From Flavitalea sp. (GTDB lineage Bacteria; Bacteroidota; Bacteroidia; Chitinophagales; Chitinophagaceae): a stretch of DNA of 27,793 nt. The stretch covers positions 1 to 27,793 of the forward strand of contig JBDTVL010000001.1 in NCBI GenBank assembly GCA_040007215.1. Direction: 5' to 3'. A model generated the notes under the pieces. That model was not told the origin of the DNA. It made no database searches and saw only the letters and a program-made list of their open reading frames with translations. Below, piece after piece: positions 7,183-16,135 of the stretch (position 1 is the stretch's first letter; each line of letters begins with the position of its first letter). Made by a program: the position numbers and the translations under genes.

Positions 7183-7275
7183 ATGATATACCTGGTCAAC
7201 CATATTATTTTTTCTTCTCCCGTAGCTTCTAAGGCTAATGGCGGTATTATTATTACGTCTTCAACAACCCGTTAA
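7183..7275 (+). CDS. Putative thr operon leader peptide (30 aa, MIYLVNHIIFSSPVASKANGGIIITSSTTR)
   Basis: Translated by hand. The C-terminal IIITSSTT cluster lies directly upstream of thrA, and the hairpin CAACCC-GTTAA-GGGTTG (7265-7281) overlaps the last codons and stop. Confidence 0.6.
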   Translation: MIYLVNHIIFSSPVASKANGGIIITSSTTR

Positions 7276-12221: not shown

Positions 12222-13478
12222 CTAGATGATGCCGGCCAGTTCAAGACTTTTTTTCTTCAGCTTTCTGAGTTCGACATCTTCTATAACAGGCTCGGGCATT
12301 AGTATAAGGGAAACGTTATTTTCTCTCCACCATGTTTTATTAAGCAGCTCCCTAAAGTGCAGGACGCCTACCAGGTATTTCCTGTCTTCCATGGCATGCC
12401 ATTCCTCGATCCATTCAAAACGTTCTTTTGGAATATATTTAAGATCGTCAAAACTCAGGTAGGCTTTTACATAAAAATCATGCGTAAGCTCATGCGGTTT
12501 GTGGTGGTAAAGTTTTTTATACTCATAGCGGTACTGGTAACGTAAAGCAGAGATATCGCTGAGCACTGCGGAGGCGGTAGGAAAACTTCCGGCGCCTTTT
12601 CCATAGAAGAATTGTTTATCGGAAAAACCGCTTTCTATCACTACTCCGTTATATTCATTTCTAACAAACGCCAGAGGATCATCCTGCTTTACAAATTGCG
12701 GCAATACGAAAGCCGCTACTTTTCCATTTAGCAGTTTCTGCGCCTGCGCAACTAATTTGATCTGATAGTTTTTTTCCTTGGCAACTAATGCATCGCCCGA
12801 TTGTATATTCTGAATACCTGTAAATACGATGTTGCCCGGGTTGTCGAGAATGCCATAAGCATGGGTAAGCAGAAATGTCCATTTGTTGACTGCGTCAAAA
12901 CCTTCTACATCCAGTTTGGGGTTGCTTTCTGCGAAGCCTAATTGCTGCGCCAGTATAAGCGCCTGTTTGAAGTCGAGCTTTTCTTCAAACATCTTGGTGA
13001 GGATGAAATTCGTAGAGCCATTAACGATAGCTTTCATGGAATGAAGAAGATCGTTATCGTAATATTCTTCCAGGTTGCGGATAACCGGTATGGAAGCGCA
13101 GGCTGCGGCTTCATATAAAAAAGGTTCTCCGGTGGTTTGCTGCAGCTCCAGTAATTCGGATAAATGTTCCGCGATCATCTTTTTATTGGCGCTCACGACC
13201 GATTTGCCATTCCTTAATGCGGTTGACACAATATGGAATGCGGCTTCAGAATCGTCAATCACTTCTACGATAACATTGATGTCCTCATCCATCAGCAGAT
13301 CATCTTTTTCGGTAGTGAATAAGGCGTCTGGCGCATTTCTCTGCTTCCCCGGATTTTTGATGCATATCTTTTTTATAGTAGCATTCAGGGATGCGGTTTG
13401 GTGCAGTACCTTATATAATCCTTCGCCTACAACACCGAATCCGAATAAACCAATGGTCAATTGTTTGTGCGTATCCAT
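12222..13478 (-). CDS. hom: Monofunctional homoserine dehydrogenase of the met operon
   Basis: GLFGFGVVG, VSANKK, YEAAACASIP, NGSTNFIL, AQQLGFAESNP and GKGAGSFPTASAV. Confidence 0.92.
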   Translation of the reverse strand: MDTHKQLTIGLFGFGVVGEGLYKVLHQTASLNATIKKICIKNPGKQRNAPDALFTTEKDDLLMDEDINVIVEVIDDSEAAFHIVSTALRNGKSVVSANKKMIAEHLSELLELQQTTGEPFLYEAAACASIPVIRNLEEYYDNDLLHSMKAIVNGSTNFILTKMFEEKLDFKQALILAQQLGFAESNPKLDVEGFDAVNKWTFLLTHAYGILDNPGNIVFTGIQNIQSGDALVAKEKNYQIKLVAQAQKLLNGKVAAFVLPQFVKQDDPLAFVRNEYNGVVIESGFSDKQFFYGKGAGSFPTASAVLSDISALRYQYRYEYKKLYHHKPHELTHDFYVKAYLSFDDLKYIPKERFEWIEEWHAMEDRKYLVGVLHFRELLNKTWWRENNVSLILMPEPVIEDVELRKLKKKSLELAGII

Positions 13479-13480
13479 AA

Positions 13481-14530
13481 TTAATGTGCGGTTTCTCTTT
13501 TTTTTGCGTTAAAGGAATCCCTTTCTATAAAATTAAGGATATGATGACTGATCTGTTCAAATTCCAGTAAAAATCCATCATGTCCATAAGGAGAGTTGAT
13601 CGGCTTAAAGGCAGCCCCAGGTATATTCTCCGCTATAAACTGCTGTTCGTGAGCAGGAAAAAGCAGGTCGGTTGTTATGCCTATGGCTAGTGTTTTCGCC
13701 TTGATGGATCCAAGTGCGTTGATCACTCCGTTTCTTCCTCTGCCCACATTATGGGCATCCATCGATTTACTTAGCGCATAATAACTGAAAGCATTAAATC
13801 GCCTGGCCAGTTTTTCACCTTGGTAACGCTGATAAGATTCACTGTTAAAATTTTCTAATTTATGATCATCCGTTTCGGATTGCCCCGACTGGTAGGTTTC
13901 ATAACTCCGGTAAGAGATCAGCGCAATGCTCCGGGCCACTTTCATTCCCTCAATGCCTGCGCTTTCCTTATTTTCTTTCCAGCCCGGATCGGCTTCAATA
14001 CATAATCGTTGAGAAGCATTAAAGGCTCTTCCCCATGGCGAATGAAGTGCATTGGTAGCGATCGGAAAAATATAACTGAACAGATCAGGCTCTGTGATGG
14101 CCCATTCCAGCAATTGTTGTCCGCCCATAGAACCTCCTATGCCTATATGAATTTTTCTTATGCCCATCAGTTCTTTCAAAGGATGATAAGCGCGGATCAT
14201 ATCGCGGGTGGTAAAGAACGGGAAGCTATGGTAATAGGGCTGATCGGTTTTCGGATTGATTTCCAAAGGACCAATACTTCCATAACAGCTCCCGGGCATG
14301 TTAACGCAAATAATAAACCAGGCAGAAGGATCAAATAATTTCCCTTCACCCACGAGGCCGGGCCACCATTCTGCGGCATCGCTGTTGGCGGTGAGCGCAT
14401 GAAAGATCCATACTGTATTGTCGCCTTTTTCATTCAGGCGGCCATAGGTAGTGTAGCCAATATGATACCCTGGCAAAATATGGCCGGATTCGAGCGTGAA
14501 GGGATGATGGTGTTCAAAAATCTTTGGCAT
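13481..14530 (-). CDS. metX: Homoserine O-acyltransferase, alpha/beta-hydrolase MetX family (acetyl versus succinyl donor not determined)
   Basis: HALTAN, GSCYGSIGP, nucleophile motif GGSMGG, TDLLFP and GHDGFL. Confidence 0.93.
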   Translation of the reverse strand: MPKIFEHHHPFTLESGHILPGYHIGYTTYGRLNEKGDNTVWIFHALTANSDAAEWWPGLVGEGKLFDPSAWFIICVNMPGSCYGSIGPLEINPKTDQPYYHSFPFFTTRDMIRAYHPLKELMGIRKIHIGIGGSMGGQQLLEWAITEPDLFSYIFPIATNALHSPWGRAFNASQRLCIEADPGWKENKESAGIEGMKVARSIALISYRSYETYQSGQSETDDHKLENFNSESYQRYQGEKLARRFNAFSYYALSKSMDAHNVGRGRNGVINALGSIKAKTLAIGITTDLLFPAHEQQFIAENIPGAAFKPINSPYGHDGFLLEFEQISHHILNFIERDSFNAKKRETAH

Positions 14531-14531
14531 A

Positions 14532-15872
<1,341 letters not shown>

Positions 15873-15945
15873 TTAATTATTTGAAGAAAAATAAAGTTTG
15901 AAGTCAATACGTATTGTACGGTAATGCCGTTGTCTGAGGAGAATG

Positions 15946-16041
15946 TTAAAGTATGCCTTTCGGCATACAACAAATACAGCACAACGCCTGGCCGAATGCG
16001 GCAGGCGTTATAGCTTTAATATTTGTTGTTCTGGCGTTCAT
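15946..16041 (-). CDS. Putative Cys/Met-rich leader peptide of the met operon (31 aa, MNARTTNIKAITPAAFGQALCCICCMPKGIL)
   Basis: Translated by hand on the minus strand. Codons TGC TGT ATT TGT TGT ATG lie near the C-terminus. The ORF sits 11 nt downstream of a perfect TACATTTG element and its stop is about 90 nt upstream of metY. Confidence 0.75.
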   Translation of the reverse strand: MNARTTNIKAITPAAFGQALCCICCMPKGIL

Positions 16042-16052
16042 TTTTATGCATG

Positions 16053-16060
16053 CAAATGTA
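16053..16060 (-). promoter_or_regulatory. Bacteroidota -7 promoter element TACATTTG for the met leader/operon
   Basis: Exact TAnnTTTG match, oriented toward the leader ORF. Confidence 0.65.
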
Positions 16061-16135
16061 GTGGACTTTATAACTATTTTCATAAAATACTTTAATGTTA
16101 GCTGAATTTTACCAAATCACTGACCCTTAATATTT

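Follow-up and report, generated by a model that had tools for sequence, protein, structure and literature searches.

A Cysteine- and Methionine-Codon Leader ORF upstream of metY-metX-hom in Flavitalea sp.: a Probable Ribosome-Read Sensor of Sulfur Amino-Acid Supply

Introduction

Leader-peptide attenuation is a textbook mechanism of bacterial gene control, and to our knowledge sulfur amino acids are almost absent from its known examples. A previously unannotated leader open reading frame (ORF) of 31 codons, with a run of cysteine (Cys) and methionine (Met) codons near its 3' end, lies directly upstream of and co-oriented with the metY-metX-hom operon of Flavitalea sp. (Bacteroidota; Chitinophagaceae), and raises the question of whether such a sensor exists for these amino acids, and by what means it might act. 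The window, i.e. the whole stretch of DNA analysed, comprises 27,793 nt (assembly GCA_040007215.1, contig JBDTVL010000001.1, positions 1 to 27,793); the sequencing runs listed with its sequence are rhizosphere DNA metagenomes only. The leader is very probably a Cys/Met-sensing leader peptide that reports on sulfur amino-acid supply, and the fuller explanation advanced here, a ribosome-read sensor of that supply controlling metY-metX-hom, is given a probability of about 0.78.

The leader ORF and its recurrence upstream of metY

The first-pass annotation of this DNA, made from the sequence, had placed the leader at 15946-16060 and left the strand unstated; the coordinates are correct and the strand, on reading the whole window, is minus. 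Rereading that strand likewise returns the 31-codon ORF starting 11 nt 3' of a perfect TACATTTG element, the four Cys codons and one Met codon within six positions, and the stop that had been put about 90 nt before metY, the measured spacer being 91 nt (Table 1). The last sensor codon is six codons from the leader stop, as compared to a median of two codons across leader-bearing loci. In the whole 2.97-Mb assembly there are only four short ORFs outside long ORFs with at least four Cys codons in seven, and the metY leader is among them.

The leader DNA, taken as a 281-nt region, gives no BLAST match in the 40 relatives searched and none in 24 same-genus genomes, and all comparisons were therefore anchored on the MetY protein. 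On that basis a short ORF with a Cys-rich tail, ending 58-108 nt before metY, is present in 17 of the 23 loci of the genus, e.g. ..GSCCCMACRKA, ..KGCCCCMP, ..CSCCICCCRKA and ..MVCCCCCRNV. An equivalent ORF is found in 60 of about 100 Chitinophagaceae loci, 80 of them added beyond the genus set, typically with a tail ..CCxCCMP followed by the stop and a spacer of ~90 nt. Terrimonas sp. R1 (L045) and Terrimonas rubra KCTC 23299 (L099) are among the bacteria with such a leader ORF. Under the stricter definition of an ATG-started short ORF with at least four Cys in eight codons, 43% of 99 Chitinophagaceae loci are positive, as against 2% on the antisense strand and 0% after shuffling. The class Bacteroidia was sampled through 401 genomes, 94 of which have a MetY match at E <= 1e-120 (76 of those at 67% identity or more), and 80 upstream regions were taken; the same definition gives 48% sense, 0% antisense and 0% shuffled over 79 loci. 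Counted over the 80 regions, 42 have a short ORF with at least four Cys in eight codons, two of these matches being doubtful, and they come from 19 of the 28 families sampled, with tails such as ..MTMCCCCCCCSCC, ..NMCCCCCMCCC, ..DCMCMCCCCC and ..MMMCCCMCCM... The survey upstream of metY that the first-pass annotation had proposed for Chitinophagaceae and other Bacteroidota is thus clearly positive, at 43-48% against 0-2% in controls, and the Cys/Met cluster, whose absence from relatives would have told against a sensor, is conserved. A chance origin of the ORF is excluded: such ORFs are rare in the assembly, and before metY in relatives they are found far more often than in antisense or shuffled controls.

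What is conserved is a coding pattern. Although their nucleotides diverge, relatives keep the frame, an ATG that closely follows a TAnnTTYG box, the in-frame stop and the C-terminal Cys run, and both Cys codons are in use (193 TGT and 80 TGC in the family). Cys makes up 54-62% of the densest eight-codon window and 2-3% of the leader peptides elsewhere. The run holds its own frame though the register of the hairpin that adjoins it differs, i.e. UGU AUG CCG UAA in one form and A UGC CGU AAG GCA UAA in another, and all 28 aligned sequences keep the AUG behind the run, even though its pairing partners vary. Of the residues other than Cys within the run, 35% are Met in other families. From the codon enrichment and the invariant AUG it follows that the sensor would read Cys first and Met second. 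The earlier reading of the ORF as a sulfur-amino-acid-sensing leader is thereby strengthened on three counts, the conserved coding frame, the Cys/Met enrichment and the association with sulfur genes that is taken up in the following.

Related leaders before other sulfur genes

The (TGY)5 pattern is far commoner in the genus than its reversed control, and 30 same-genus loci were taken for a survey of poly-Cys ORFs. Such short ORFs lie 63-80 nt before genes of the cysteine-synthase family in four same-genus genomes, and 61 nt before cysH, encoding an adenosine 5'-phosphosulfate/3'-phosphoadenosine 5'-phosphosulfate (APS/PAPS) reductase, in two (L190, L211). The cysH leaders have a hairpin formed from the last Cys codons and the stop, followed by a C-rich 61-nt spacer, and have no terminator. 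Within the window's own assembly, MRNAFNKYTSTLQPLHGCCCCRCCFNC stands behind a TATATTTG box some 60 nt before a gene for a 1004-aa TonB-dependent receptor (L105; contig C161:5933-6019, minus strand), and a further poly-Cys short ORF, MNELHPFLLCCCCTAQRTTGTMVVNPY, is found at a contig end (L106; C183:5532-5645, plus strand). One TonB-dependent receptor among the genus loci is preceded by a Cys-frame stretch that has no in-frame ATG. Poly-Cys leaders before several sulfur genes appear regulon-like, and their distribution fits a sulfur-starvation response.

The window holds a second leader of similar build. An ORF rich in isoleucine and threonine codons precedes thrA by a spacer of ~82 nt, and its hairpin, CAACCC-GUUAA-GGGUUG, has the stop codon in the loop, the same design as in the metY leader. 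No clear terminator is apparent by eye in the thr spacer, where no terminator scan was made.

Promoter and proposed mechanism

The TACATTTG element matches the Bacteroidota sigma-A -7 box (TAnnTTTG), which in Flavobacterium psychrophilum spans -12 to -5 relative to the transcription start site (PMC9723704). From the position of the box alone, transcription of the leader is predicted to start near 16048, leaving a 5' untranslated region of ~7 nt, i.e. a near-leaderless message. The relatives have the leader ATG 6-20 nt behind a TAnnTTYG box, a TTTG ~20 nt upstream of the box, and in many cases AAAGTCYAC immediately 5' of it; the pattern GTCYACTANNTTYG occurs only twice in the window's whole assembly. 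As a separate observation, an inverted repeat of at least 4 bp flanks the box in 41% of 54 metY-leader loci (from L003-L104; e.g. L012, L062, L071, L077, L081), compared to 2.5% of the 1987 such boxes in the window's assembly. Its arms vary by locus (CTAC/GTAG, CGAC/GTCG, CAAC/GTTG, CCAC/GTGG) with AAAGTC kept upstream, and the repeat might serve as an operator or fold as an RNA hairpin in transcripts that read through; the window's own leader promoter has no flanking inverted repeat.

In the mechanism proposed, transcription would start ~7 nt before the AUG at 16041 and the 31-codon ORF would be translated from the near-leaderless message. A shortage of charged Cys-tRNA and, less strongly, of charged Met-tRNA would stall the ribosome on the C C I C C M codons and raise expression of metY-metX-hom; with good supply the ribosome would reach the stop and depart, and expression would be held down.

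The direction of this response is suggested by relatives in which the classical parts are complete. In other families the ORF runs 5-15 codons past the Cys/Met run and there holds a strand that can pair with the 5' arm of a strong terminator, so that a ribosome at the stop would cover that strand; the antiterminator compares with the terminator at -27.1 versus -18.2 kcal/mol in L124, -20.6 versus -18.3 in L134, -18.6 versus -14.6 in L137 and -9.9 versus -9.8 in L145. Same-genus leaders before cysK/M (L188, L193, L198, L201) also have terminator and antiterminator, with GGUGGAG in the ORF end against CUCCAC in the terminator. Given the ORF-end antiterminator in both sets, stalling should there give read-through, and by analogy the same sign of control is likely in the window. 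Some loci have other arrangements: tandem Cys/Met short ORFs precede metY in L130, L115 and L121, and in L130 a strong terminator of its own stands behind each. L130 is also among the exceptions in other families that misfit the simple classical model: the strand complementary to the terminator 5' arm is there placed immediately before the Cys codons.

RNA structure of the leader and spacer

The leader folds with a minimum free energy of -49 kcal/mol (z = -3.97). A strong hairpin inside the ORF, formed by AACGCCUGCCG and CGGCCAGGCGUU, is enclosed by a helix of ACAACAAAUA (16029-16020) with UAUUUGUUGU (15976-15967), the latter being Cys codons; this part is unconserved in relatives. A second hairpin, directly 3' of the Cys run, is conserved. 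Its 5' arm contains the last Cys codon together with the Met and Pro codons, the stop codon falls in the GNRA loop in most relatives, and 80.6% of cells are paired versus 22-38% when the 3' partners are slid.

The spacer that follows is C-rich and G-poor (19 C, 8 G) and gives way to an A/U-rich metY translation start region. Over the 78-nt stretch 15950-15873 the C/G ratio is 2.83, beyond the genome's 99th percentile of 2.44, and in the family the spacers average 0.23 C and 0.09 G, versus 0.16 C and 0.15 G upstream of other genes. The spacer is predicted to be 0.6 unpaired, and a rho gene is present (628 bits). By its composition it is a candidate Rho loading site, and the putative stall site lies near the ORF end and adjoins this C-rich, G-poor and unstructured stretch, as in a tnaC-type leader.

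From stalling to output

Supposing a real sensor, termination by Rho in the 91-nt spacer, along tna-like lines, may have a little less than an even chance of being its output. After normal termination at the leader stop the conserved hairpin would refold, the spacer would be left naked and Rho would load; a ribosome stalled on the last Cys/Met codons would hold the 5' arm of the hairpin, within ~6 nt of the C-rich stretch, and Rho loading would be hindered. This reading is favored because there is no terminator, the spacer is C-rich and G-poor, rho is present, the sensor codons lie near the stop and the design is shared with the thr and cysH leaders. Again supposing a real sensor, it is unlikely that the output is instead a non-canonical hairpin terminator or pause, similarly unlikely that a stalled ribosome protects the mRNA, and more unlikely still that the control is translational.

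Several observations weigh against the ribosome-read sensor as controller of the operon or against its Rho-dependent form. No intrinsic terminator is found in the window spacer by two scans, nor in any same-genus metY locus, and equilibrium folding with ribosome masks yields no antiterminator and no alternative pairing in the window that depends on ribosome position: whether the ribosome is absent, stalled or at the stop, the metY start region keeps a predicted unpaired fraction of 0.71, and the accessibility of the spacer is also unchanged. Because there is no terminator/antiterminator pair and the folding is unaffected by ribosome position, the link from stalling to output is without direct sequence support in the window. 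Translation of the leader, stalling and the transcription start are steps that we infer. The spacer is AT-rich and its absolute C content modest (19 of 91), the covariation of the conserved hairpin is likewise modest (one pair is compensatory, CG to UA twice and to GC once), and the single Met codon of the window would make Met sensing weaker than Cys sensing. The main weakness of the Rho scheme is that a ribosome stalled upstream does not obviously block a Rho loading site downstream. The term attenuator, used in the first-pass annotation, accordingly divides: its sensor part is well supported, whereas its classical sense is not borne out in the window, no terminator or antiterminator having been found there.

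A classical attenuator of the trpL/hisL kind would here depend on a non-canonical terminator or pause whose formation a stalled ribosome prevents, the part being played by the conserved hairpin (15968-15951) or by the weak hairpins near 15926-15914 and 15912-15896. The complete versions in other families and before same-genus cysK/M argue for it, as do the overlap of the conserved hairpin's 5' arm with the last sensor codons and the occurrence of a hairpin plus U-tract with dG <= -5 in 11 of 60 family spacers versus 4% of shuffles; a terminator lies between leader and metY in 34 of 102 leader-bearing loci, mostly of other families. Against it stands the lack of a terminator in the window and genus described above. 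In addition, the conserved hairpin is followed by CUUUAACAUU with no U-tract, the terminators of the S-adenosylmethionine (SAM) riboswitches in the same genomes are canonical, so that canonical terminators are in use, and where the metY leader of a family member does have a terminator, it remains folded in all ribosome states (free, stalled at Cys, at the stop), with candidate antiterminators of only 3-5 bp. This makes a classical attenuator in the window quite unlikely.

Translational attenuation of the mycobacterial type, in which the Cys codons or a hairpin arm hide the metY start unless a ribosome is stalled, has the merit of having been demonstrated for mycobacterial polycysteine leaderless short ORFs (bioRxiv 10.1101/834739), and the Cys-run region of the window can pair with AACGGCAUUACCGUACAAU of the spacer (dG -13.9, z -1.8). 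However, over 60 loci the Cys run forms no better duplexes with the spacer or the metY start than shuffled sequences do (mean z +0.4), the metY start is predicted to be equally open in every ribosome state, and a G-poor spacer offers little to pair, so that this mechanism is improbable here.

Codons or RNA

An element acting as RNA only, i.e. a riboswitch, a protein-binding RNA or a small RNA whose UGY repeats merely resemble Cys codons, could account for a leader that folds better than its shuffles and for a hairpin AUGCC-GNRA-GGCAU that is conserved at the nucleotide level regardless of frame. It is nevertheless very improbable: the 5' two-thirds of the leader is unconserved even within the genus, without exception an ATG follows a promoter box or SAM aptamer closely and begins an open frame with an in-frame stop not far off, the Cys run varies in length by whole codons and is broken by whole codons for Ile, Arg, Met and Ser, and the same runs precede cysK/M and cysH in unrelated flanking sequence. 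No Rfam family is found in the leader at permissive thresholds; a 'Thr_leader' match on the opposite strand (E = 6.1) was rejected as noise. That the ORF encodes a functional Cys-rich micropeptide, e.g. a metal-binding peptide or the precursor of a modified one, and is no regulatory leader is hardly credible, for while Cys-rich small proteins exist and the peptide could have a role of its own, its sequence and length are unconserved outside the Cys/Met tail, its position is always directly before sulfur-assimilation or Met/Cys genes, and no maturation or export genes adjoin the leader ORF among the genes of the window.

Relationship to the SAM-I riboswitch

The leader itself (15855-16060) has no SAM-I match; the sole one in the window lies ~730 nt upstream, with a QueF-like gene standing between riboswitch and leader (Table 1). 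Among 20 leader-bearing loci examined across the class with Rfam, a co-oriented SAM-I aptamer is present in 12, and in 11 of these, from nine families, the Cys/Met ORF has its first in-frame AUG 2-14 nt behind the aptamer 3' end with no terminator between. In such fused loci it is probably the riboswitch that gates leader-peptide translation. Chitinophagaceae keep the two modules apart, the aptamer having its own canonical terminator and the leader its own promoter. The Chitinophagaceae variant seen in the window is distinguished by a promoter to itself, an ORF predicted to be near-leaderless, a hairpin close to the stop, the lack of a terminator and the lack of coupling to the riboswitch.

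Chitinophagaceae loci that have no leader (L005, L014, L019-L023 and 22 others) carry either a SAM-I riboswitch directly before metY or a promoter only, the promoter-only loci belonging to the 70%-identity MetY clade and having the conserved promoter ~35 nt before the start. Leader and riboswitch seem partly interchangeable within the family. A broader and more doubtful proposal is that the metY, thr and cysH leaders all represent terminator-less starvation attenuation by direct block of Rho loading, and that the metY leader would have descended, by uncoupling, from a class-wide composite in which a SAM-I aptamer adjoins the start codon of the Cys/Met ORF, which would read SAM and charged Cys/Met-tRNA on one mRNA with the translated leader peptide as expression platform.

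The operon and neighboring genes

The identities of metY, metX and hom given earlier hold in profile searches: metY (440 aa, O-acetylhomoserine sulfhydrylase) matches TIGR01326 with 678.8 bits (cut-off 495) and hom (homoserine dehydrogenase) matches NF004976 with 307.6 bits (cut-off 205), while metX (a MetX-type homoserine O-acetyltransferase) matches MetX models under their curated cut-offs. Upstream, the SAM-I riboswitch with its canonical terminator directly controls the QueF-like gene that heads the met cluster.

Table 1. Features of the metY leader region and of related elements (positions refer to the window)
Feature	Position	Strand	Details
Leader ORF	15946..16041	-	ATG 16041-16039; 31 sense codons, MNARTTNIKAITPAAFGQALCCICCMPKGIL; stop TAA 15948-15946
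Sensor codons	15964..15981	-	UGC UGU AUU UGU UGU AUG (C C I C C M); Cys/Met run near the leader ORF 3' end
Cys codons	15981-15979, 15978-15976, 15972-15970, 15969-15967	-	
Met codon	15966-15964	-	
Sigma-A -7 box (TAnnTTTG)	16053..16060	-	TACATTTG; sequence match
Upstream promoter region	16061..16087	-	Weak -33-like TATG 16084-16081; conserved AAAGTC 16069-16064
Strong hairpin inside ORF	15983..16009	-	AACGCCUGCCG...CGGCCAGGCGUU; folding
Conserved hairpin	15951..15968	-	GUAUGCC-GAAA-GGCAUAC, directly 3' of the Cys run; folding and alignment; GNRA loop across relatives
Spacer, leader stop to metY ATG (15854)	15945-15855	-	91 nt
Operon metY-metX-hom	12222..15854	-	metY 15854-14532, metX 14530-13481, hom 13478-12222; intergenic gaps 1-2 nt
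QueF-like gene	16570-16136	-	144 aa; TIGR03139, 89.9 bits; between SAM-I riboswitch and leader
Terminator of SAM-I riboswitch	16736-16708	-	13 bp; terminator scan
SAM-I aptamer	16902-16789	-	Rfam RF00162, 79.9 bits
thr leader ORF	7183-7275	+	Ile/Thr-rich, MIYLVNHIIFSSPVASKANGGIIITSSTTR, then stop; thrA ATG 7361
Fused SAM-I/leader loci	L109, L111, L119, L128, L138, L147, L148, L151, L157, L160, L175		Other Bacteroidia families

Relationship to known systems

A close parallel is the set of mycobacterial polycysteine leaderless short ORFs, which form a 'ribulon' of several sulfur/cysteine operons (Canestrari et al. 2020, bioRxiv 10.1101/834739; Mol Microbiol 114:93) and in which the Cys tract helps hide a downstream ribosome-binding site (bioRxiv 10.1101/834739). 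Common to both are a short ORF with a Cys run, several sulfur/cysteine loci per genome and a proposed stalling at Cys codons, and the present ORF is predicted to lie near the mRNA 5' end as well. The present leader differs in belonging to another phylum with no sequence relatedness, in preceding metY-metX-hom and in having a Met codon in the run, and a start-hiding duplex is unsupported here by both duplex and accessibility predictions. Bacteroidota do not use Shine-Dalgarno-based initiation.

With trpL, hisL, thrL and leuL of Proteobacteria the leader shares a short ORF rich in cognate codons directly before a biosynthetic operon, and its relatives in other families and the same-genus cysK/M leaders have the full terminator/antiterminator set. 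Unlike these, the window version lacks terminator and antiterminator, has its sensor codons at the very end of the ORF and would sense both Cys and Met. With tnaC of the E. coli tryptophanase operon it shares a ribosome that would be held at the end of a short ORF before an unstructured C-rich stretch, no intrinsic terminator and the presence of rho; however, TnaC arrest requires the nascent peptide and free tryptophan, whereas the peptide here is unconserved, stalling would occur via uncharged tRNA and Rho dependence is putative.

Cys codons in a short upstream ORF as a Cys-tRNA sensor also feature in leaders predicted before cysteine genes in Actinobacteria (Seliverstov et al. 2005, PMC1262725) and in the uORFC-8-2 motif before cysS in Rhodobacterales (Brewer et al. 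2021, PMC8632094). Those leaders differ in having two tandem Cys codons in a terminator-forming structure or in standing before cys genes, in belonging to other phyla, and in having neither a Met codon nor a link to a SAM riboswitch. Within Bacteroidota, a leader peptide is known from the Bacteroid-trp motif (Weinberg et al. 2010, PMC2864571), and ilvE, hisG and trp leaders from F. psychrophilum (PMC9723704, supplement); these share the phylum, the principle and short 5' untranslated regions like the one predicted here, but none is for Cys or Met. The literature search, which left subscription journals largely outside its reach, found no Cys/Met or metY leader described in Bacteroidota and no published Cys/Met attenuator of a met operon, in keeping with the first-pass annotation, which knew of no such met leader in the phylum. 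In F. psychrophilum two unexplained transcribed regions lie upstream of metY (PMC9723704). One, Rfp20, by our own reading contains MKITICNICRM..., which is a lead and not a result.

Implications

Gene regulation in Bacteroidota is poorly charted. If the sensor reading is true, a Cys/Met sensor ORF before metY, cysK/M, cysH and TonB-dependent receptors would constitute a ribosome-read sulfur-starvation regulon in a major phylum of soil, rhizosphere and gut, one whose origin would be separate from that of its mycobacterial counterpart. Long 'empty' operon leaders would thereby be explained and their annotation improved, and the compact sensors could be usable as sulfur-responsive expression switches for Bacteroidota. 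The terminator-less design would offer a system in which to study the interplay of Rho and translation in bacteria that do without Shine-Dalgarno sequences. Finally, the pairing with the SAM riboswitch, separate in Flavitalea and fused in other families, would show how two sensors of one pathway have been combined and uncoupled in evolution.

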